Shown in pieces: positions 3,554 through 26,297 of a stretch of DNA of 32,000 bases. Origin of the DNA: an uncultured Chloroflexia bacterium (GTDB lineage: Bacteria > Chloroflexota > Anaerolineae > Anaerolineales > Anaerolineaceae). The stretch is from NCBI GenBank assembly GCA_963704755.1, contig OY969938.1:3150001-3182000 (forward strand). Direction: 5' to 3'. The notes below the pieces were generated by a model, which saw nothing but the letters and a program-made list of their open reading frames with translations, was not told where the DNA came from and did not search any database. The translations under genes were made by a program, and so were the position numbers. Within the stretch, counting starts at the first letter, position 1. Every line of letters starts with the position of its first letter.

Positions 3554-3610
3554 CCGGAAAAATGGGTGTACGCACCAGGCGTACGCCGGCGCGTACACCC
3601 ATTTTTCCGG
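3554..3610. repeat. Perfect 20-bp-stem palindrome at the permease/HlyD junction
   Basis: ccggaaaaatgggtgtacgc (3554-3573) is the exact reverse complement of gcgtacacccatttttccgg (3591-3610). The 17-nt loop contains gcgtacgc. Confidence 0.9.
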
Positions 3611-3619
3611 CACTTATAG

Positions 3620-4753
3620 CTACAGCCGTTTGCGAAAGACCAGCACGCTGGCCGTGAAATAGCCAATGCTGAGGACGATGAGCGGCACGATGGAGGACCA
3701 CCACAGCGTGCTGGCCGCCACACCTCGCAGCATGATGCCGCGGGTTATGGTCAAGTAATGGGTGACCGGCAGCAGGTCACTATACAGAAGGGAGAGCAGG
3801 GGCATGTTGTCCCGCGGGAACATCAGCCCCGAAAGGATGATGGCCGGGATCAGGACGATGAACACCGCCAGATAAATCGCCTGCATCTGCGATTGGGCCA
3901 GGTTGGAGATAAGCACCCCCATACCCAGCGATCCGACAATAAAGACCAGGCTGACCCCCACCAGCTCCCAGAAACTACCCGCGATTTGTACGCCAAACAT
4001 GATCTTACTCAAGAACAACAGGGCGAAAAGGTTGAACATGCTGACCAGCAGGTAAGGGATGATCTTGCCCAGCATCAATTCCCAGGATTTGATCGAGGTG
4101 ACGATCAATTGCTCCATGGTGCCCTGCTCGCGTTCTTTTACGATCGCCAGGGCTGAAAGGAGCAGCGCCTGCACCTGTAAAATAATCGGGATCAGGCCGG
4201 GGATCATGTACAGCTTCTGGTCGCTGTTGGGATTGTAGAGGGTCTTGAAAAAGGCCGATACCGGCAGGTTCAAGCCGCTGCTGTTCGTCATGCGCACAAT
4301 CTGTTTGACCAGAATGTTTTCCGAGGCCATCTGGCTGATGGCGTTCAATTTGAGCTGGATGGTCTGCACATTGGTCGGGTCGCCCGAGCCGTTGACGTAA
4401 AACTGCACGTCCGCCGTCTGGCCGGTATCCAGGTTGCGGCCGAAATTCTCCGGGATCAAGATGCCGACCTGCACCTGGCCGCTGTCCATCAGTTCCAGCA
4501 TTTCGGCTTCACTCAATACGTCGTAGGAGATCTTGAAATCTTTGCTGGCGGTAAAATTGGCGATGTAAGCCCGGCTGGCGTCGGTCTTGGAAAGATCGAC
4601 CACCACCATCGGGATCTCGCTGCTTTTGCCGGAAATACCAAAGCCGAGCAAGATCAGCAGCAAACCTGGCAGTAGAAGGATCAGTCCTAATGTGCGCGGA
4701 TCTCGCCAGATATGATAGAGCTCCTTGCGCATGATGGTCCATAAACGTTCCAT
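3620..4753 (-). CDS. ABC-2 type transporter permease
   Basis: An N-terminal TM segment, then a soluble loop of about 150 aa, then about 5 C-terminal TM segments. This is the typical ABC-2/YbhS-YbhR-like topology. AGGAGA lies 8 nt upstream of the ATG at 4753. Confidence 0.8.
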   Translation of the reverse strand: MERLWTIMRKELYHIWRDPRTLGLILLLPGLLLILLGFGISGKSSEIPMVVVDLSKTDASRAYIANFTASKDFKISYDVLSEAEMLELMDSGQVQVGILIPENFGRNLDTGQTADVQFYVNGSGDPTNVQTIQLKLNAISQMASENILVKQIVRMTNSSGLNLPVSAFFKTLYNPNSDQKLYMIPGLIPIILQVQALLLSALAIVKEREQGTMEQLIVTSIKSWELMLGKIIPYLLVSMFNLFALLFLSKIMFGVQIAGSFWELVGVSLVFIVGSLGMGVLISNLAQSQMQAIYLAVFIVLIPAIILSGLMFPRDNMPLLSLLYSDLLPVTHYLTITRGIMLRGVAASTLWWSSIVPLIVLSIGYFTASVLVFRKRL

Positions 4754-4806
4754 AAGTTATTCTCCTGAAGTGGGGGCAGCCCAGGGCAATTTTCGAAAAG
4801 GTCGAA

Positions 4807-4851
4807 TTTTTGGTATTGGGGTGGTGCAAAGCACCACCCCAATACCAAAAA
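4807..4851. repeat. Perfect 21-bp-stem palindrome with 3-nt loop at the ATPase/permease junction
   Basis: tttttggtattggggtggtgc-aaa-gcaccaccccaataccaaaaa; the arms are exact reverse complements. Confidence 0.9.
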
Positions 4852-8921: not shown

Positions 8922-11247
8922 TCAACTTCCGTATCGGCCACCGGCCGCCTGCTCAGCCCAAACGTACTCATACCCGCTGACGTATGCCGGGTAAGCCAGG
9001 GGTACGTGTTCGCCGTACACTTCCTTTCCAACAGGTTCCTGCTCGGGCCCCGCCCTTTGCATCCTGCCTGGCTCACTAAAATCCAAAGGCCGGGTATCGG
9101 AAGGCATAGCGTCAAAAGGCTCCAGCACCGTGGCGGCCGCGCGGCGCAGTAATTCCAGGTAGCGGTCCACGTCCAGGGCATTGAAGTCCGGCTTCTCCGC
9201 CAGGTCCCAGGCCTGGACTTTGGCCGCCGTGCGCACGTAGAGGAACCGCACCCGCTGGCCGGGCTGTTTGTCTTTGCCCGCCGCGCGCAGTTGCATCAGC
9301 GCACGGGCAGCCGGGGAAGGTACTTTGTAGGCCTCCAGCTCGCGGCTGAGTTTTTGCCCGATCACCAGTTGGTCCAGCGGCACCCGGCCGTGCCGTAAAT
9401 CCGCCTCGCCTTGCAGCAGCAGCGCCTGTGCCTGCGGAATCGCCTGGCGCAGCTCTTCCGCATTTTCTGCCTGCCCGAGCACCTTGAGAATCTGCAACTG
9501 TACATCGGCGATAAACGACGGCATATCCCTGCGCCGGGCATCGATCCCGCGAAATTTGAACGATCCGTCCTGAAAAACGCCGAAATAGCGGTTGGGCACC
9601 GGCACTTTAGAATTGACTCTGGAGGGCAAGAAAACCAGCCAGCGATAGATGCCATCCAGCGCGATCGAGAGCCCCGTACGGCTCGAGATTTCATCCAGCA
9701 AAGGTTCGAACTGGTCCGGACGGTTAAAATCCTTTTTCCGCACCCACAAGCCATCCACATACATATGCAGCACCTCAAATCCCAGGTCTTCCGCGGCTTC
9801 CTTGGCCAGCAGCAGCGCCTCGCGTCCCCAGGTGGTGACCGCCTCGTGCGATTCGATCCGCCCGAAGCGGCTGTTTTTATAGCCCAGGTAGCCAAAACAG
9901 GTGACCAGCAGCCATTTGTGGGCCGACGAAATCGCCTGGTAGCGCTTATAGCGCGGGTCGGTGTCAGGCATGTTCCCCAAAGTCAGCTTGATGGTCACGC
10001 GTTTATCCAGCAGGGGTTTGAGGGTGAGAGGGATCAGCCCTGGTTCTTCGTTGGAGCCAAGGAATGTGGGCACCGGCTTTTCCGGGGAAATATTGCAGCG
10101 CACCATGATGCTGGGGTACATGGAGATAAAATCGATTTCGGCCACGTCGGAATGAACCCCGACGATGGGCTGGTAAACCAGGCCGCCTTGATCGTAGCGC
10201 AGCAGATCCAGGGCGGTTTTAGGCCGCTCGGCCTGCTGTTTGTGCCACGGCACCAGAATCTGGTTACGCAGCGCGGTAAGGATCTGCATCGAGGAAATGC
10301 CCGTGCCCGGAGAAGTGCGGGCCGAGGTTTGAATAGACAGGGCCGTGACCCGCGCGCCTTCCAAAATGCCTTCCAGGTCCTCGGCGCCCCACAAAGAGGA
10401 ATTGTGCCGGTCTACGTGACAGCGCCCAAACAGGTGGATCTGCTGGCCTTTATAAATGATCTGGCCGTAGCTGAAATAGGAATTCTCCCGCTTTTGAATT
10501 ATCCCGCGCCCGGCGTCACGGTTGAGCGGCAAGGGCACCCCCCGGCGCTGGCTTTCTTGCAGCAGCAACGGCAGCAGCCAGGTATCTCCCCACTTGCTCA
10601 AGAGGATGTCGGGGTCGACATGCTGCAGAATAGAGCCCAGGCGGGTGACCAGCGTATCCATTTGCCCAAAGGAAAGCTCAAGGACATCCTGCTCATAGCC
10701 CACCCGCAGGATGCGCGGCGGTTCATGCTGGGGGTCGCAATCCGGCTCCAGGGTAAGGACACGCAGCGGCGCCGGGAGTGGGTCAATATCCCAGGGCGAG
10801 TCCAGCACACGTACTCCATGGATCTGGCCATTATTTGCATAACTGACCTGGCAAAACGCCAGTGGAAAGGTGTTGTATACCGCAGCGTAACGCAGGCAGA
10901 GCTGAATATCCGCGTCGTAATAGGTCAGCTCGGGAAAAGCGTGCGACATTCTCAAGAACAGGTTCGGTTGAGCGGCCGCGTTGGCTACCTGGACCGTGAG
11001 CAAAGTGACCGGTTCAGGTAGAAAAAGATCGCGTCCCTGGCTGCGGCCCAATTTTAGCGATTTCGGGCTGATTTTTTAGCCAGCGCCACGCCGTTCGCAG
11101 GCGTTCGGTTGGCCCGGTTAGCGAAAATGTGACCGGAAAGTATTGATGCAGCCTCAGCCGCTCTCCGCTGCTGGTGATGAACCAGATCACTATCCCCTCA
11201 TGGCTATCCGCGTACAGGTCCAGCAGCCAGCCGGTTTGCTCGTTCAT
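8922..11247 (-). pseudogene. polB: Divergent family-B (Pol II-like) DNA polymerase, split by a +1 frameshift between 11017 and 11075
   Basis: Motif A EIDFISMYPSIM, motif B-like KWLLVTCFGYLGYKNSRFG, motif C region LHMYVDGLWV, KxY-like PNRYFG. The N-terminal 77 aa (MNEQTGWLLDLYADSHEGIVIWF..., ORF 11014-11247) are in another frame that overlaps the main 709-aa ORF (8922-11051). It may be intact if the shift is an assembly error. Confidence 0.75.
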
Positions 11248-12167: not shown

Positions 12168-12196
12168 ATTATACAGAACTTATGTTCTATAGTCAA
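12168..12196 (-). promoter_or_regulatory. Near-consensus promoter with a LexA (Cheo-type) box in its spacer
   Basis: Minus strand reads TTGACT (12191-12196), a 17-nt spacer, TATAAT (12168-12173). The spacer contains the perfect palindrome AGAAC-ATAA-GTTCT (12175-12188), which matches GAAC-N4-GTTC. Confidence 0.6.
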
Positions 12197-12254
12197 TATA
12201 GGATATGCAAGCCGGGGGAATTTCGCCGCTCCAGCTCGCATATCCTATATTGAC
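12192..12254. repeat. Perfect 17-bp inverted repeat with 29-bp spacer, overlapping the -35 of the cassette promoter
   Basis: gtcaatataggatatgc (12192-12208) is the exact reverse complement of gcatatcctatattgac (12238-12254). Confidence 0.85.
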
Positions 12255-12296
12255 TTCCTTATCTCTCCCTTAATGCAACCTTAAGCTCCTCCCTTA

Positions 12297-13910: not shown

Positions 13911-13955
13911 CTAGTAATAATACTTTTATAACTGCTTAGCCAAACGGGTAAGAAC

Positions 13956-14010
13956 CCCGAATTTGAGGTGTTTGCGAGGGCTTCGCCCTCGCAAACACCT
14001 CAAATTCGGG
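13956..14010. repeat. Perfect 25-bp-stem palindrome (element family alpha)
   Basis: cccgaatttgaggtgtttgcgaggg-cttcg-ccctcgcaaacacctcaaattcggg; the arms are exact reverse complements. Confidence 0.9.
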
Positions 14011-14039
14011 ACTTTTTCCTTTCAGGTGAACCGTTTTCG

Positions 14040-18207: not shown

Positions 18208-18260
18208 CTGAATGTGAAGTATTTGCGAGGGCAAAGTCCTCGCAAATACCTCACATCCAG
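18208..18260. repeat. 23-bp-stem palindrome (family alpha) between kinase and regulator genes
   Basis: ctgaatgtgaagtatttgcgagg-gcaaagt-cctcgcaaatacctcacatccag. There are two A-C mismatches on the plus strand. The sequence is homologous to the 13956-14010 element. Confidence 0.85.
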
Positions 18261-18955: not shown

Positions 18956-19014
18956 ATTCCGGGTTCGAGGTATTGGCAAGGGCTGTGCCCCTGCCAATAC
19001 CTCGAACCCGGAAT
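18956..19014. repeat. 28-bp-stem palindrome (family alpha) between convergent genes; likely bidirectional terminator
   Basis: attccgggttcgaggtattggcaagggc-tgt-gcccctgccaatacctcgaacccggaat. One A-C mismatch (18979/18991) and a 3-nt loop. Confidence 0.85.
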
Positions 19015-20105: not shown

Positions 20106-20975
20106 ATGGCAGAACAAAATGTTGGCAGAACGGCGCTCGGGGCAGCCACGTGCCGGCTGATCGAACAGTACCGGCCGGCGGATACCCGTTTATTCAATGA
20201 CCCGGTGGTCAAAAGCCTGGTGGGCACACCCATCCGGGTTTTGTTGCAGTTCGCCAGCATGCGCAACCTGACGATCAAGCAGACTGACGCGGTTGCCGTG
20301 GGGATCTTCGGCGCCCAGATCTGCCGCACCCGCTACATCGACGACACGGTCCAGGCCGCCCTGGCCGGCGGGATCAGGCAGTTGGTGATCCTGGGCGCCG
20401 GCTTCGATACCCGCCCTTACCGCCTGGCCGGGATCGAGAATGTCAAGGTGTTCGAAGTTGACCTGCCCTCGGTCCAGGAAGACAAAAAGAAAAAGCTGGC
20501 CCATTTTCTTGGCCAGTTGCCCCCAAACGTGACCTTTATCCCGATTGATTTTAACCGCCAGGCCCTGGATTCGGTCTTAGCCGGCAGCGCCTTTGACTCA
20601 ACTCAACCGGCCGTGTTTATCTGGGAAGCGGTGACCCAATACATCACTGAAGACGCCGTCCGCCAGACCCTGTCCTTCATCGGTAAGTCCGCCGCCGGCA
20701 GCATGCTGGTTTTTACCTACGTGTTAAAGAGCGTGATCGAGCAGCGCACCGGCAACCCGGACCTGGACAAGATGGTGGACTTTGTGGCCAAGAACAACGC
20801 GCCCTGGGTTTTCGGCCTGGAGCCGGCCACCATCCGCGAATTCTTGCAGCCCTTCCACCTCGACCTGGTCGAAGACGTAGGCAATGCCGATTACCAGCAG
20901 CGGTATCTCCGCCCCATCGGCCGCGACCTGGTCGTCTCCGAAGCCGAACAAATCGCCCAGGCCATCGTCAAGTAG
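20106..20975 (+). CDS. Class I SAM-dependent methyltransferase (leucine carboxyl / TIGR00027-like O-methyltransferase family)
   Basis: N-terminal GRTALGAATCRLIE, SAM-binding LVILGAGFDTRPYRL, acidic motif VFEVDLPSV, and VFIWEAVTQYI. This pattern is typical of the mycobacterial-type putative O-methyltransferases. Confidence 0.75.
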   Translation: MAEQNVGRTALGAATCRLIEQYRPADTRLFNDPVVKSLVGTPIRVLLQFASMRNLTIKQTDAVAVGIFGAQICRTRYIDDTVQAALAGGIRQLVILGAGFDTRPYRLAGIENVKVFEVDLPSVQEDKKKKLAHFLGQLPPNVTFIPIDFNRQALDSVLAGSAFDSTQPAVFIWEAVTQYITEDAVRQTLSFIGKSAAGSMLVFTYVLKSVIEQRTGNPDLDKMVDFVAKNNAPWVFGLEPATIREFLQPFHLDLVEDVGNADYQQRYLRPIGRDLVVSEAEQIAQAIVK

Positions 20976-21006
20976 CCCGGCTTTCAAAACCGAGGGCTGA
21001 AGCGCA

Positions 21007-21670
21007 AAATCAGCCATGGATGGACACGGATACATACAGATTTTGTTTATTAAAGAATTATCTGTGTCCATCCGTGTACATCTGTGGCTATAATTTTCCC
21101 GGTTTATAAGGCCAAGAAACAGACATGGTAGTCCTGGTTTCTTAGCCGGCCTTATTTACCACCCACCCCTGATAAATCAATCACAGATGGACACAAATAG
21201 ACACAGATATTTTTTTTAAAAGAATCATCTGTGTCCATCCGTGTACATCTGTGGCTACAAATTCCCAGCTTATAAAGCCAAGAAATTGTTTTATTGCCCT
21301 GGTTTCTTAGCCGGCCTTGTTTACCACCCACCAGGGAAAGAGATCAATCACAGTTGGACACAAATGGACACAGATATTCTTTACAAAAGAATCATCTGTG
21401 TCCATCCGTGTACATCTGTGGCTAAAATTTTCCCGGTTTATAAGGCCAAGAAATTATTATAATGCCCTGGTTTCTTAGCCGGCCTTGTTTACCACCCACC
21501 AGGGAAAGAGATCAATCACAGATGGACACAAATGGACACAGATATTTTTTACAAAAGAATTATCTGTGTCCATCCGTGTTCATCTGTGGCCAAAATTGTC
21601 CTCTGCCCACCAGCATTGAAGAGCGGGCCGAACACGATCAAAGCAGATTGTTCTAAAAACATCTGTGGCT
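21007..21670. repeat. Array of 167-168-bp structured tandem repeats: about 3.5 good units plus a degenerate terminal unit
   Basis: The motif atctgtgtccatccgtgt[a/t]catctgtggc recurs at 21060-21088, 21227-21255, 21394-21422 and 21562-21590, giving periods of 167, 167 and 168 bp. The partner arm cacagatggacacaaatggacacagat recurs at 21182, 21349 and 21517, with a degenerate copy at about 21011. A second conserved imperfect hairpin (aaggccaagaaa ... tttcttagccggcctt) lies in each inter-palindrome segment. GC content is clearly lower than in the flanks. Confidence 0.9.
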
Positions 21671-21672
21671 AT

Positions 21673-23247
21673 TCAGCGGCCCATTTTGCGGAAGCCAGCC
21701 CGCAGCAGACCCGGCAGAGCAGCGTACAGCGCGCCAGCGATGAGCACCACCATCAGCAGCCGGGCGACCTCGGCCGGCAGGCTCAACGCCAGGCCAACCG
21801 CCAGCACCGGCAGCAGCGCCAGCAAAATGGCCACGATCCCCGGGGTGGGGATATTTCCGGCCAAAAGATGCTCGGCTTTGGTGCGTTGGGTGATATCGAA
21901 GGCCGCCGCTGCGGATACCCCCAGTGCAACCACCGGCAGCCCCAGGAAAGCCGCCAACCCGACCTGGCTCAACCCGATCACCTGGTAAACGGCCAGGGCA
22001 AACCAGCTCAGCAGGGTGGTAATCACGGCTACCGGGGCAATTTCGGTCAGAAGCGTCCGCGCGGGGCGGTAGGGCAGGGTAAAGAACAGTGTCCACATCT
22101 CCAGATCGGCGCTCAAGCCGCGAGCCGCCAACCCCTGGACACGCATGATCCAGATAATCAGCAACAGCCCGCGCGAGATCCAGTCCGGGTCGGTCAAAAT
22201 GCCAATCCCTAGCCCGAAGACGAACAACCATTGCCCCAGGTCCCCCATGAACCCCCGGCGAGTGGTCTGAATGGCCTTTTTCCACAAAATCGCGTTTTCA
22301 CTCACGGCGACCGGCAGCCGGCTGGCACTGTGCCCGCTGGACAGGCGTTTTTGTAGTTTGACTTCCTGGGTATCGCGCGGCTTGAGCAGCAACTCGCCCA
22401 GGCTGGCGCTGGTCTCTTGGGGTTGAGACATACGCGCCAGGCTGACCGAACGCGAAGCCCAAACCAGGGCGACCATTCCGCTGATCCACCAGGCTGTCGC
22501 GACCAATAAACCGGGTAAAAACGCAGCCGCACCACTACCGGCATTGGCCGGCAGTGCGATCGGAACCGTTATTCCCCGCCAGGGGGTCAACAGGCCCGCT
22601 GCCAGGATTACAAATACGGCCACCGGGATCCAGACCAGTCCGCGCCGCCGCTGGCTGCCCTGCAAACGGAAACAGCCCAAAGCCCAGCTCCAGGCCAGCA
22701 GCCCCAGGAACAGGAGGGTTACCGGCAGCAAGAAACGCAGGGCCGCGCCCAGGTATTCCGGCATATCGGCCCACACGGCTTTACCGCCCACGCGGATATC
22801 GATCATGCCGAAGGCCAGAACGGTGGACACAATCCAGACGGGAATGCCGGTCAGCAGGCTGGAATTGGCATAGCCGGCCAAAACCACTGCCGGGCGTGAG
22901 GCAGGGGTCATGCACAAAAGCACTGCGTCTTGTGGGCTGAGTTTAAGTGGGCTGCGGCTCGTCGACTGGAACAGGCTGAAGACCCACCAGCCGGCGATCA
23001 ATACGGACACGATCGTTCCGGCCACCACCGCGGGCTGGCCAAAACCGGGCATCTGCAAAAAGGCAGCCGCCCCCGAAGCACACAAAGCCAGCACGGCAAA
23101 ACCCCACAGGGCAAAAAATAACAAGGCATACACCAGGTAGATCATCTCCCCCAGGGATTGCTCTTTGGGGTTGTACCCGGTAATGGTCAGCACAAATTTA
23201 AAACTGGCGCTGAACTGGCGCGAGCGCACAAACCAGACCGCGTTCAT
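21673..23247 (-). CDS. Polytopic membrane protein (524 aa), probable permease partner of the upstream ABC ATPase
   Basis: At least 12 hydrophobic segments in two blocks, separated by a charged loop (KPRDTQEVKLQKRLSS...). Its start overlaps the ATPase stop (23244-23247). The family is not recognised from the sequence alone. Confidence 0.55.
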   Translation of the reverse strand: MNAVWFVRSRQFSASFKFVLTITGYNPKEQSLGEMIYLVYALLFFALWGFAVLALCASGAAAFLQMPGFGQPAVVAGTIVSVLIAGWWVFSLFQSTSRSPLKLSPQDAVLLCMTPASRPAVVLAGYANSSLLTGIPVWIVSTVLAFGMIDIRVGGKAVWADMPEYLGAALRFLLPVTLLFLGLLAWSWALGCFRLQGSQRRRGLVWIPVAVFVILAAGLLTPWRGITVPIALPANAGSGAAAFLPGLLVATAWWISGMVALVWASRSVSLARMSQPQETSASLGELLLKPRDTQEVKLQKRLSSGHSASRLPVAVSENAILWKKAIQTTRRGFMGDLGQWLFVFGLGIGILTDPDWISRGLLLIIWIMRVQGLAARGLSADLEMWTLFFTLPYRPARTLLTEIAPVAVITTLLSWFALAVYQVIGLSQVGLAAFLGLPVVALGVSAAAAFDITQRTKAEHLLAGNIPTPGIVAILLALLPVLAVGLALSLPAEVARLLMVVLIAGALYAALPGLLRAGFRKMGR

Positions 23248-24004: not shown

Positions 24005-24051
24005 ATCTCTCTATTGGGTATGCGCCTTCGGCGCATACCCAATAGAGAGAT
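24005..24051. repeat. Perfect 22-bp-stem palindrome with 3-nt loop
   Basis: atctctctattgggtatgcgcc-ttc-ggcgcatacccaatagagagat; the arms are exact reverse complements. Confidence 0.9.
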
Positions 24052-24080: not shown

Positions 24081-24117
24081 ACCATCTGTGTGCATCCGTG
24101 CCTATCTGTGGCTAAAA
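24081..24117. repeat. Solo half-copy of the 167-bp repeat palindrome arm
   Basis: accatctgtgtgcatccgtgcctatctgtggctaaaa compared with the array consensus atcatctgtgtccatccgtgtacatctgtggctaaaa, about 5 mismatches. It overlaps the stop codon (24112-24114) of the acyltransferase gene. Confidence 0.7.
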
Positions 24118-25077
24118 AGCGATGATGCGGTTATTCCTGGCCAGCCAGTGGGCGATGGCCGACAGGGCCACCAGCAGCCCGGCCGCCTGGACCGCCACCA
24201 GCCAGTGGGGTGCCTGGGCATACCAGCCCGGCGCGTCCGGCAGGACAACGATCCCCAGCAGCACCAGGTGCAGGAAATACAACAGGATCGGGTTTTTCCC
24301 CCAGGCCGGCAGCGGACGCAGCCGCAGCCCCAGCCGGTCCGCCAGCAAGACGAAAACTGCATAGACCAGCCCGCTGGCTGCCAGGCTGACCAGCACATAG
24401 CTGGCTGAGACGCGGTTCTTGCTGATCGGCGCCCAGGGAGTCAGCGCCAGGCCAAGCGCCAGGGCCAGCACGGCCAGCCCGACCAGCGTCTTGAGGTCCT
24501 CGCCCCGGCGGTGAAAGGTATCGCTGACGGCGGTGACCAGCACCAACATCCCGCTCCAGGAGATGGCTCCCAACAAGCCTCCGTGCGAAGAGGCCAGCAC
24601 CGTACTCAGCCATAAGGTATTCAACAGCACCTGGTAAATCGCCAGGATCGCCAGCCCAACCAGCGCCCGCACCCAGGCCGGCGTGCGGATGAAGACCAGC
24701 GCGACCAGCCCGGCCACGCCGATAGCCTGCAAAACACCCCAACTGAGGATCGATTCGCTCTGCCCAAAATAGAACATGCCTGCCGAGATGAGCGCCCCTA
24801 CCCCCAGAATAGCCAGGTAACGGCTGGCAAAATGTGAAACCGTCTGCGGCCAGCCGTCTCGCTCGATCCGCCGCTGGGCGGACAGGCCGTAAGTCAGGCC
24901 GATGGCGAAGATAAAAAAGGGCGCAATCAGGTCGATGACCGTCAGCCCGACGTCCGGCGCGTGTTTGAGCCCGGCCGGCACCCACTCGACCCCGGCCAGG
25001 TAATTGGCCAGCACCATGGTCAGAATGGCAAACCCACGGAACGCATCGATGGAAGCTATTCGTTTGGTCGGCATCAC
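24112..25077 (-). CDS. Integral-membrane acyltransferase-like protein (DUF1624 / heparan-alpha-glucosaminide N-acetyltransferase-like)
   Basis: The N-terminus KRIASIDAFRGFAILTMVLANY is characteristic of the DUF1624/COG4299 family. About 9-10 TM segments. Confidence 0.65.
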   Translation of the reverse strand: MMPTKRIASIDAFRGFAILTMVLANYLAGVEWVPAGLKHAPDVGLTVIDLIAPFFIFAIGLTYGLSAQRRIERDGWPQTVSHFASRYLAILGVGALISAGMFYFGQSESILSWGVLQAIGVAGLVALVFIRTPAWVRALVGLAILAIYQVLLNTLWLSTVLASSHGGLLGAISWSGMLVLVTAVSDTFHRRGEDLKTLVGLAVLALALGLALTPWAPISKNRVSASYVLVSLAASGLVYAVFVLLADRLGLRLRPLPAWGKNPILLYFLHLVLLGIVVLPDAPGWYAQAPHWLVAVQAAGLLVALSAIAHWLARNNRIIAF

Positions 25078-25142
25078 AAATGGTATTGTATCGCTTTTTC
25101 TCGCACCCGTTCAGCCGGAAAACAATAAATCAGCCATCTCGG

Positions 25143-25170
25143 AAGAAACCCGGCATTTGCCGGGTTTCTT
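25143..25170 (-). terminator. Hairpin downstream of the aldo/keto reductase gene
   Basis: aagaaacccggc-attt-gccgggtttctt; perfect 12-bp stem. No strong U-tract follows. Confidence 0.45.
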
Positions 25171-25204
25171 GTACCTCTTGTCAAATTTTATTTAACCAAT
25201 CCTT

Positions 25205-26182
25205 CTACGGCAAAGCCTCTCCGCGGCCGGCCAGGAACAGGCGGTACCAGTCTTCGCGGCCCAGCTCGACCTGGTCACCCTGGCAGGCGGCGGCGATACG
25301 CTGCGGGCGGGTGGTGCCGATGATGGGCTGCATGTGAGCCGGATGGCGCAGGATCCAGGCGGTCAGGATGGCTTCGGCCGGCACACCGTGGGCTTTGGCC
25401 AGTTGGGCGACCACCGCGGAGGCCTGGGTGGCCCGTTCATCTGCTTCGCCATCGTCGCGGCCAGTCAGCCAGCCCCAGGCCAGCGAACCCCAGGTCTGCA
25501 AAGTGATGTTGTGCAGGCGGCAATACTCGATGGTGCCTTCGTTGCGGGCCAGCAGGGGATTATCCTGGTTGAAGACGATACCCTCGTTGAGCATATGCAG
25601 GTTGAGCGGGTTGAATGCCACCTGGTTGGCCACAATGGGCTGGTCGAGGGATTGGCGCAGCAGCTCCAGTTGGGCGGCGGTGTGGTTGCTGACCCCGAAC
25701 CAGCGCACCTTGCCGGCCTGGTGCAGCTCATCGAAGGCGCGGGCTACTTCTTCCGGCTCGACCAGCGGGTCGGGGCGGTGCAGCAAGAGCACGTCCAGGT
25801 AATCGGTTTGCAGGCGTTTCAGGCTGCCTTCCACCGATTCAATGATGTGCTCGTAGCTGAAATCGAAGCGCTGGGGAGAACCGGGGTTCGGCTCACCCGG
25901 AAAGCGGATGCCGCACTTGCTTTGCAGCAGAATCTTCTCGCGCAGGCCGGGAACTTCTTGCCAGATGGCGGCGAAGACCTGCTCGGACTTGCCCTTGCAG
26001 TAAATATCGGCGTGGTCGAAGAAGTTGATGCCCTGGTCGAGGGCTGCGCGGATGCTGACGACCGCCTCACGGCGGGTCTGTTCCTGGAGCGGGCTGTTAT
26101 CCCAGGTGCCGCCCAGGGGCATGCAGCCGTAGCCGATGCGGGTCACCTGTAAATCCGAGGCGCCTAACGAAATGGTTTGCAT
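25205..26182 (-). CDS. Aldo/keto reductase family oxidoreductase (YdhF-like)
   Basis: GYGCMPLGG, FFDHADIYCKGKSE, LDVLLLHRPDPLVEPEEVARAFDELHQAGKVRWFGVSNHTAAQLELL. These segments closely parallel what I recall of E. coli YdhF. Confidence 0.85.
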   Translation of the reverse strand: MQTISLGASDLQVTRIGYGCMPLGGTWDNSPLQEQTRREAVVSIRAALDQGINFFDHADIYCKGKSEQVFAAIWQEVPGLREKILLQSKCGIRFPGEPNPGSPQRFDFSYEHIIESVEGSLKRLQTDYLDVLLLHRPDPLVEPEEVARAFDELHQAGKVRWFGVSNHTAAQLELLRQSLDQPIVANQVAFNPLNLHMLNEGIVFNQDNPLLARNEGTIEYCRLHNITLQTWGSLAWGWLTGRDDGEADERATQASAVVAQLAKAHGVPAEAILTAWILRHPAHMQPIIGTTRPQRIAAACQGDQVELGREDWYRLFLAGRGEALP

Positions 26183-26234: not shown

Positions 26235-26297
26235 AAAATCTGAATTCGAGATGTTTTCCGGGGCTTAGCCCTGGAAAACATCTCGAATTCAGATTTT
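26235..26297. repeat. 29-bp-stem palindrome (family alpha) between the TauE and reductase genes
   Basis: aaaatctgaattcgagatgttttccgggg-cttag-ccctggaaaacatctcgaattcagatttt. One G-T pair (26260/26272). Confidence 0.85.

Follow-up and report, generated by a model that had tools for sequence, protein, structure and literature searches.

The DNA analyzed in this study, referred to below as the window, is a 32,000-nucleotide stretch from the genome of an uncultured Chloroflexia bacterium of the family Anaerolineaceae (assembly GCA_963704755.1, contig OY969938.1, positions 3,150,001 to 3,182,000), in which a tandem array of large palindromes occupies the space between two convergent genes. These palindromes are gene-less members of a foldback (inverted-repeat) family that crosses bacterial phyla. 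In the complete form of the family, the arms enclose a gene of ~125 amino acids (aa) encoding a PD-(D/E)XK nuclease (PDDEXK_3/GxxExxY), and the left arm gives this gene its start codon. The array probably consists of gene-less derivatives of the nuclease cassette that form strong stem-loops at the 3' regions of convergent genes, similar to the hairpins made of paired repetitive extragenic palindromic (REP) sequences, or REPINs, and to miniature inverted-repeat transposable elements (MITEs). The element appears to be selfish or mobile DNA of a kind that has seldom been described.

The arm family and the nuclease cassette

An arm of the family is defined as two to three or more phased 10-nt repeats of the form CAC(A/G)GAT(G/A/C)(A/G)A with CC/GG at the outer end, and the arms of the window palindromes agree with this definition. 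The family consensus of the left arm is AACCACAGATGAACACAGATGRACACAGAT, which reads by decamers as AACC-ACAGATGAAC-ACAGATGRAC-ACAGAT, and the right arm is its reverse complement. All four right arms of the window match the core TGTGTCCATNNGTGTNCATCTGTG, and the left arms match its reverse complement. A preliminary description, made from the letters of the window, had proposed searching for the 167-bp unit in public genomes. A scan with the arm core (21 specified bases; one genome per species, 596 Gb) found it in at least 119 genome stretches, compared with ~0.3 expected by chance according to our arithmetic. The hosts among the matches listed belong to more than ten phyla and include Cyanobacteria, Verrucomicrobiota, Planctomycetota, Acidobacteriota, Chloroflexota, Gemmatimonadota, Bacteroidota, Alpha- and Gammaproteobacteria, Nitrospinota, Methylomirabilota, and others. 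Isolates are represented by Scytonema and Tolypothrix (Cyanobacteria) and Wenzhouxiangella (Gammaproteobacteria), with at least 11 loci in Scytonema HK-05, and the core also occurs in seven viral contigs. The sequence around the motif is different in each match, which argues against contamination as the source. Between cyanobacteria and the Verrucomicrobia, Planctomycetes, Acidobacteria, and Proteobacteria, hardly a letter of the 30-nt arm has changed.

An inverted partner arm, that is, one pairing at 21 or more of the 30 positions within 460 nt, accompanies 75 of the 138 matches listed. The spacers between the two arms range from 3 to 405 nt and have no sequence in common; the window pairs, with 24 of 30 positions paired and an 18-nt loop, qualify under the same rule. 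In 65 distinct hairpins, the positions left free by the search pattern covary between the arms. For instance, the column pair 10-71 is AU in 37 hairpins, GC in 17, UA in four, GU in three, and other or unpaired in four, and similar variation is seen in the pairs 9-72, 20-61, and 25-56. The covariation score is 0.149, compared with 0.115 in shuffles, none of which (0/500) reaches the observed value, and with at most 0.100 when the partner is slid. The pairing of the arms fades 2-3 nt beyond the CC/GG ends.

The arms flank a GxxExxY gene in all ten independent places examined at the DNA level. In two metagenome-assembled Azospirillum genomes (L013, L021), perfect 30-nt arms 405 nt apart enclose a 129-aa gene, whose product matches both Pfam PDDEXK_3 (E = 4e-39) and NCBIfam TIGR04256, "GxxExxY protein" (E = 9e-40). 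An acidobacterial locus (L106) has an arm-enclosed GxxExxY cassette at 4302-4770 and a gene-less hairpin 2 kb away. On Verrucomicrobia-like contigs (L128, L130/131), the cassette separates an ABC ATPase gene, whose stop it overlaps, from a MacB/FtsX permease gene; the cassette is tolerated inside an operon in these related genomes (L128, L130, L131). The gene is likewise found between arms at L134, L135/136, and L137, and in Crinalium PCC 9333 (L129) it is enclosed by arms of the CGCAGATG flavor. Other phased short repeats enclose GxxExxY genes in the same layout, namely CGCGAAAAG in L127 and CGCCAAGA in L040. GxxExxY is the sole real protein cargo found between CACAGAT-type arms (126 loci).

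The start codon of the nuclease gene lies within the left arm, where ATG AAC ACA GAT AAA CAC AGA T is translated as MNTDKHR. The arm-encoded start, written as M[NDKA][TA]D[KEGR], is present in 81 of the 120 nearest homologues and in 19 of 109 diverse single-domain representatives, compared with one of 109 in a control region. The nuclease family comprises 37,636 clusters at 50% identity (E <= 1e-3). The predicted structure (predicted local distance difference test, pLDDT, 95) is a minimal PD-(D/E)XK core in which the D...ExK motif is invariant (D71, E81, K83). The folds nearest to this model are those of Cas4 SSO0001 and of the lambda/alkaline exonucleases (template modelling score, TM, ~0.55), and a sequence search of the PDB with the nuclease profile gave no match. 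In a 2012 survey of the PD-(D/E)XK superfamily, the function of this family was given as unknown, with multiple transfers between divisions (PMC3424549). About one quarter of the best GxxExxY representatives (P0241-P0390) are 250-295 aa long and carry two tandem GxxExxY domains; these may be fused neighboring cassettes.

No conserved neighbor gene was found around the public matches listed. By gene calls that are rough in these loci, copies lie between convergent genes in 19 cases and between divergent genes in seven, and the tandem contexts (21 versus 25) have no orientation bias; arm copies were found inside operons, directly upstream of genes, and at gene ends. The loops and spacers often contain other nested repeats, and in Scytonema and Tolypothrix a ~105-bp repeat with the ends TATAGCG...CGCTATA carries a single arm in its loop. 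Further repeats with a ~10-nt phase, AATTCGCGNN, TTTCGTGGTT, TTCCTGCTT, and GAAAGCG, adjoin CACAGAT-type hairpins or are nested in them, often as inverted pairs (L074, L009, L048, L024, L042, L085), which suggests a wider class of arms with several sequence flavors. A metagenome-assembled Nostocaceae locus (L111, 2073-3633) has small open reading frames (ORFs) of 92-208 aa between runs of a heptamer (TTAACCA/TGGTTAA) in inverted orientation. The layout equals that of the decamer family, with short-direct-repeat arms around a minigene, at a period of 7 nt instead of 10.

Literature searches with the exact arm strings, with GxxExxY/PDDEXK_3, and through REP surveys returned no description of the arms or of their link to GxxExxY.

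The repeat array in the window

The preliminary description had reported a tandem array with a unit spacing of 167, 167, and 168 bp and a lowered GC content. Both traits are reproduced: the ungapped repeat search gives the same start-to-start distances, Tandem Repeats Finder reports a single tandem array at 21036-21601 (period 168, 3.4 copies, 88% matches, score 857), and the GC content is 0.41 in 21001-21500 versus ~0.6 in the surroundings. The ~660-bp array region fills the gap between the 3' ends of two genes, the plus-strand gene having its stop at 20975 and the minus-strand gene at 21673. Each unit contains a palindrome of ~78 nt in which arms of 30 nt stand on both sides of an AT-rich loop of 18 nt, and the arms pair at 24 of 30 positions in each of the four copies. 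The features of the region are as follows.

20106-20975, plus strand: upstream convergent gene of the leucine carboxyl methyltransferase family (Pfam PF04072, E = 9e-47)
21012-21089: hairpin 1, the most diverged copy; left arm 21012-21041 (AGCCATGGATGGACACGGATACATACAGAT), 18-nt AT-rich loop, right arm 21060-21089; fold -39.0 (plus strand) and -33.2 (minus strand) kcal/mol, z ~-7 on both strands
21090-21178: spacer 1 (part 2 of the unit), duplicated along with the hairpin and private to the source genome, with small alternative stems
21179-21256: hairpin 2; left arm 21179-21208, loop 21209-21226, right arm 21227-21256; fold -32.9 (plus) and -38.9 (minus) kcal/mol, z -7.1 and -7.9
21257-21345: spacer 2 (part 2)
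21346-21423: hairpin 3; left arm 21346-21375, right arm 21394-21423; fold -37.8 (plus) and -42.9 (minus) kcal/mol
21424-21513: spacer 3 (part 2), its 3' half identical to the 3' half of spacer 2
21514-21591: hairpin 4; left arm 21514-21543, right arm 21562-21591 (the GTGTTCAT variant, equal to the family consensus); fold -44.9 (plus) and -42.5 (minus) kcal/mol, z -11.2 and -9.5
21630-21672: decayed fifth copy; left-arm-like GAACACGATCAAAGCAGAT at 21630-21648, right-arm end CATCTGTGGCTAT at 21660-21672
21673-23247, minus strand: downstream convergent gene with a 524-aa product and no Pfam match; an ABC ATPase gene lies upstream of it
24084-24113, plus strand: solo arm of the same decamer family, CCATCTGTGTGCATCCGTGCCTATCTGTGGCTA, without an inverted partner

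The arms of the window are built of three head-to-tail decamers CAC(A/G)GAT(G/A)(G/A)A in a 10-bp phase, which Tandem Repeats Finder also returns as period-10 rows; the right arm is spelled by ATCTGTGTCC, ATCCGTGTAC, and ATCTGTGGCT. The right arm ATCTGTGTCCATCCGTGTACATCTGTGGC occurs three times exactly and once with one mismatch in the window, where shuffles expect none. At up to one mismatch, ATGGACACA is found 16 times in the window versus 5.0 expected, and 11 of the 16 copies are inside the array. The arm variant carried by the array is GTGTACAT/CATCCGTG; the window-specific arm variant had no matches in the metagenome scan. The large imperfect palindrome with an AT-rich center in each unit, and the phased repeats in inverted arms that gave the region the look of a recognition module, thus stand as first described.

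The array decays at both ends, as had also been observed, and the letters of its remnant at 21659-21672, ACATCTGTGGCTAT, are identical to those at 21078-21091. The right-arm end of the fifth copy adjoins the stop codon (21673-21675) of the minus-strand gene for the 524-aa protein. Similarly, the solo arm, which the preliminary description had not listed, ends in the stop codon of a minus-strand gene (24112-25077; CTA, or TAG in the reading direction of the gene). The copies are 61-93% identical to the reference copy, and being so diverged they are not a collapsed or expanded assembly artefact, which had been named as one way in which the array could prove spurious. A CRISPR array was rejected as well: the "spacers" are themselves repeated, and units 2 and 3 as wholes are 93% identical.

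A profile search of the six-frame translation found no GxxExxY remnant in the array or in the whole 32-kb window, which identifies the window copies as the gene-less form. From the sequence, it appears that one gene-less hairpin with ~92 nt of its flank was amplified locally by tandem duplication to about four copies. For annotation, the ~660-bp region is repeat DNA, neither an origin nor a gene, and the earlier remark that no standard annotation explains it was correct.

Several other features of the window were noted. Each big hairpin contains sigma-70-like matches on both strands, TGGACA (TAGACA in one case) followed after 16 or 17 nt by AAGAAT/AAAAAT, six in total versus 1.1 in shuffles (21198-21225, 21365-21392, and 21533-21560 on the plus strand; 21237-21209, 21404-21376, and 21572-21544 on the minus strand). 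With a fit at only nine of 12 consensus positions and a dependence on the AT-rich loop, they leave face-to-face promoters unproven. The window also has many other long intergenic hairpins that are near-perfect and do not belong to the decamer family; their arms measure 21-42 nt and their loops mostly 1-15 nt (13947-14019, 26235-26297, 18956-19014, 12191-12255, 3554-3610, 24005-24051, 4807-4851, 18208-18260, and 1993-2102). Several of them have a loose common core, GAGGTGTTTGCGAGGGC, GAGGTATTGGCAAGGGC, and GAAGTATTTGCGAGG, and may constitute a genome-specific REP-like or terminator family. Finally, a 709-aa ORF at 8922-11051 on the minus strand has a family B DNA polymerase domain (PF00136, E = 1.5e-31) and is located amid ordinary metabolic genes.

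Possible origin of the hairpins and alternative explanations

We suggest that the hairpins are non-autonomous relatives of the nuclease cassette, standing to it as REPINs stand to the genes of REP-associated tyrosine transposases (RAYTs) or MITEs to transposons. They could persist or spread because the nuclease works on their arms in trans, or by recombination from arm to arm. The predicted RNA folds of the four window hairpins have energies from -33 to -45 kcal/mol on either strand (z from -7 to -11), and the better-folding strand differs by copy. Transcripts from either convergent gene would fold into such stems, which could stop or stabilize the mRNAs.

Several observations weigh against this explanation. 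No pair of filled and empty sites and no target-site duplication were found, and movement was not directly seen. Flanking direct repeats of 2-5 nt are at the level of shuffles for all assumed boundaries but one, and the single exception, a 2-nt excess (14 versus 5.3), is put down to a self-complementary GC dinucleotide at covarying positions. For the window locus, no empty site can be defined: the nearest homologues of the leucine carboxyl methyltransferase gene are ~70-72% identical, and the downstream synteny is lost. Such arms are absent in the relatives L132 and L133. No GxxExxY gene lies in the 32 kb of the window, and the action of the nuclease on the arms in trans is inferred. A GxxExxY gene is enclosed in just three of the 138 strict-pattern matches listed; gene-less copies are far more common, and the gene may thus be a frequent passenger and not the driver. 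The scan pattern fixed one arm, which biases the family statistics towards consensus copies. As for the effect on transcripts, a terminator role is weak by consensus, the T-runs after the big hairpins being only four long.

A more far-reaching and tentative proposal, which we consider possible though on balance doubtful, is that the decamer-arm hairpins and the GxxExxY nuclease form an undescribed pan-bacterial repeat-plus-nuclease system, an analogue of REPIN-RAYT on another enzyme fold. The nuclease would recognize the phased decamers, as duplex, cruciform, or single-strand hairpin, and would propagate or maintain, in more than ten phyla, both its own cassette and gene-less hairpins by the thousand; the array would then be a set of locally amplified substrates. 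If the nuclease does act on the arms, a role would be found for a very large orphan nuclease family, many spurious "MNTDKHR"-type N-termini in annotations would be explained, and a second enzyme class would enter the biology of domesticated or selfish hairpin repeats.

Alternatively, the dispersing unit could be the single 30-nt arm, a "very small dispersed repeat" that some host process lands in hairpin loops and at gene ends, so that the palindromes are two arms set head to head and the GxxExxY gene is a frequent occupant of the loop. The 63 of 138 matches listed that have no partner arm within 460 nt fit this model, as do the solo arm of the window itself (24084-24113), the lone arm in the loop of the TATAGCG...CGCTATA repeat of Scytonema and Tolypothrix, and the frequent nesting of other kinds of repeats in the spacers. 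However, it leaves unexplained both the covariation between the arms at free positions and the fact that every sampled GxxExxY gene has arms on its two sides and a start codon in one of them. We consider this explanation unlikely.

The hairpins could also be immobile RNA elements selected by the host, such as bidirectional terminators, stabilizers of 3' ends, or RNase III processing sites of the two convergent operons; in this case the likeness across phyla would come only from transfer of the cassette, the hairpin of which was then reused. The array does lie in a 3'-3' intergenic gap, convergent contexts exceed divergent ones in the public loci (19 versus seven), the stems are very stable on both strands, and the arms adjoin stop codons at two sites in the window. 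The intervening sequences of 23S rRNA provide an analogue, being a selfish element with an ORF in the precursor 23S rRNA (PMC4990558). On the other hand, many copies are directly upstream of genes or within operons, a terminator needs no exact conservation of 21-30 nt across phyla, and the T-tracts are poor: the scan for the terminator consensus matched only the small part-2 stems and the outer end of hairpin 1, with T-runs of at most four after the big hairpins. The asymmetry of G.U versus A.C pairs between strands was used to look for selection at the RNA level: the family ratio is that expected of neutral transitions in an A-rich arm, and the favored strand varies among the window copies. 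Taken together, these points make purely host-selected RNA elements improbable.

Part 2, the ~92-nt spacer, had been likened to a structured RNA whose stem is preserved while its loop differs in every unit. A stem AAGGCCAAGAAA / TTTCTT-AGCC-GGCCTT can indeed be drawn in all three copies, which differ in the intervening 17-18 nt, and unit 2 folds better than shuffled sequence. However, the stem is missing from the minimum-free-energy fold of unit 2 on both strands, unit 2 has a change within it (AAAGCC), the fold energy comes mostly from the big hairpin, and the differences between units extend outside the proposed loop, being concentrated also in the loop of the big hairpin and in the 5' half of the spacer. 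Comparative support is lacking too: the conserved core of part 2 had no matches in the metagenome contig scan, and the three tandem paralogues make an argument from covariation impossible. Rfam 15 had no matches in the window at gathering thresholds; at an E-value threshold, the only models to match were eukaryotic microRNA precursors, that is, generic long hairpins far under the cut-offs. Having no relative in metagenome contigs, part 2 is read as co-duplicated flank, and the chance that it is a small structured RNA seems very slight.

It is equally improbable that the array serves replication, partition, or the organization of the chromosome as a cluster of binding sites, whether iterons, a centromere, or sites for nucleoid proteins: the decamers are 10-bp-phased in inverted arms around an AT-rich core and the cumulative GC skew has a minimum near 25 kb in the window, but no rep, par, dnaA, or dnaN genes were found in the 32 kb, DnaA-box-like sites are at chance (four versus 3.2 expected), the window is part of a 4.87-Mb contig, the array unit has no blastn match in 72,556 plasmids or in phages, and the arm occurs in many copies per genome, within operons, at gene ends, around a nuclease gene, and in unrelated phyla. 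The class of replication origins, iterons, and partition sites was accordingly rejected, there being no initiator or partition genes, no cluster of DnaA boxes, and no single locus. From the earlier comparison of the arms with iterons, the mention of a recombination site comes nearest to the evidence, which suggests that the arms are the ends of a repeat element linked to a nuclease; origin and partition sites are unsupported. The skew minimum itself, at ~25000-25500, has neither dnaA/dnaN nor a DnaA-box cluster; all genes to the right of it are on the minus strand and oppose the replication direction that an origin there would imply. It is probably a matter of local composition and not an origin, and a stretch of 32 kb is too short for a judgement.

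Comparison with known repeat systems

The closest analogue of the decamer-arm elements is the REPIN-RAYT arrangement, in which paired REP sequences form hairpins and have a RAYT as their partner enzyme (Bertels and Rainey 2011, PMC3116915; Di Nocera et al. 2013, PMC3733652). In both systems, long hairpins arise from short inverted doublets, and a genome carries many of them between genes, frequently at the ends of genes. The inverted repeats also surround a small gene for a nuclease or transposase, and copies with the gene are far rarer than copies that lack it. The differences concern the enzyme, the arm, and the spread. The partner of REPINs is an HUH Y1 transposase, whereas the decamer family is linked to a PD-(D/E)XK nuclease (GxxExxY). 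A REP is a small palindrome with a GTAG or CGTC tag (PMC3733652), whereas the decamer arm is made of three direct decamers. REPs are lineage-specific, whereas the decamer arm is near-identical across more than ten phyla. Membership among REPs and REPINs was accordingly rejected, as the window arms contain neither GTAG nor CGTC and are direct repeats, not palindromes; so was a RAYT assignment, as only GxxExxY and no Y1 (IS200-like) transposase was found between CACAGAT-type arms. A putative IS200-like ORF of 150 aa (RAYT-type by eye, HYHIVF...WQPGYAAF) does occur at L119 (1872-2563), flanked by its own unrelated palindromes, in an 8-kb block that also has a decamer arm. Thus REP-RAYT and decamer systems can coexist in one genome.

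Bacterial MITEs of the Correia/NEMIS type are intergenic; terminal inverted repeats of ~26-30 bp enclose their short non-coding core, and their transcripts contain hairpins. The decamer elements share this layout, the transcript hairpins, and the intergenic position. Unlike MITEs, they have no target-site duplication, no DDE transposase as a partner, and no conservation of the internal sequence (spacers of 3-405 nt). Membership in the cut-and-paste, DDE-derived MITEs was rejected on this ground: inverted repeats are present and a target-site duplication was not found. With iterons and partition sites, the decamer arms share phased short direct repeats, sometimes in inverted groups, beside AT-rich DNA; in contrast to these, the arms have no adjacent Rep or Par gene, are dispersed in multiple copies, have the same sequence across phyla, and are embedded in operons.

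The intervening sequences of 23S rRNA are bracketed by a stem and excised by RNase III. Some of them carry an ORF; for instance, the Coxiella burnetii intervening sequence with S23p is treated as a selfish element (PMC4990558). The likeness to the nuclease cassette lies in a small ORF of unknown role inside a long stem that is regarded as selfish. The decamer elements differ in lying outside rRNA and in their protein family.

Elhai and co-workers are said to have described, in 2008, small dispersed repeats of heterocystous cyanobacteria that are 21-27 nt long, have no known transposase, and are nested in hairpins and in other repeats. These are reportedly limited to cyanobacteria, with no link to a nuclease and no spread across phyla. 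They resemble what the single-arm model proposes and may overlap with the single-arm copies of the decamer family, for which the setting of the lone arm in the Scytonema loci is suggestive.

As a rule, REPs, REPINs, and MITEs are confined to particular lineages and linked to transposases of the HUH or DDE type. Among these systems, the array is best filed as an interspersed-hairpin-repeat element, unusual for its cross-phylum conservation and for its PD-(D/E)XK partner.

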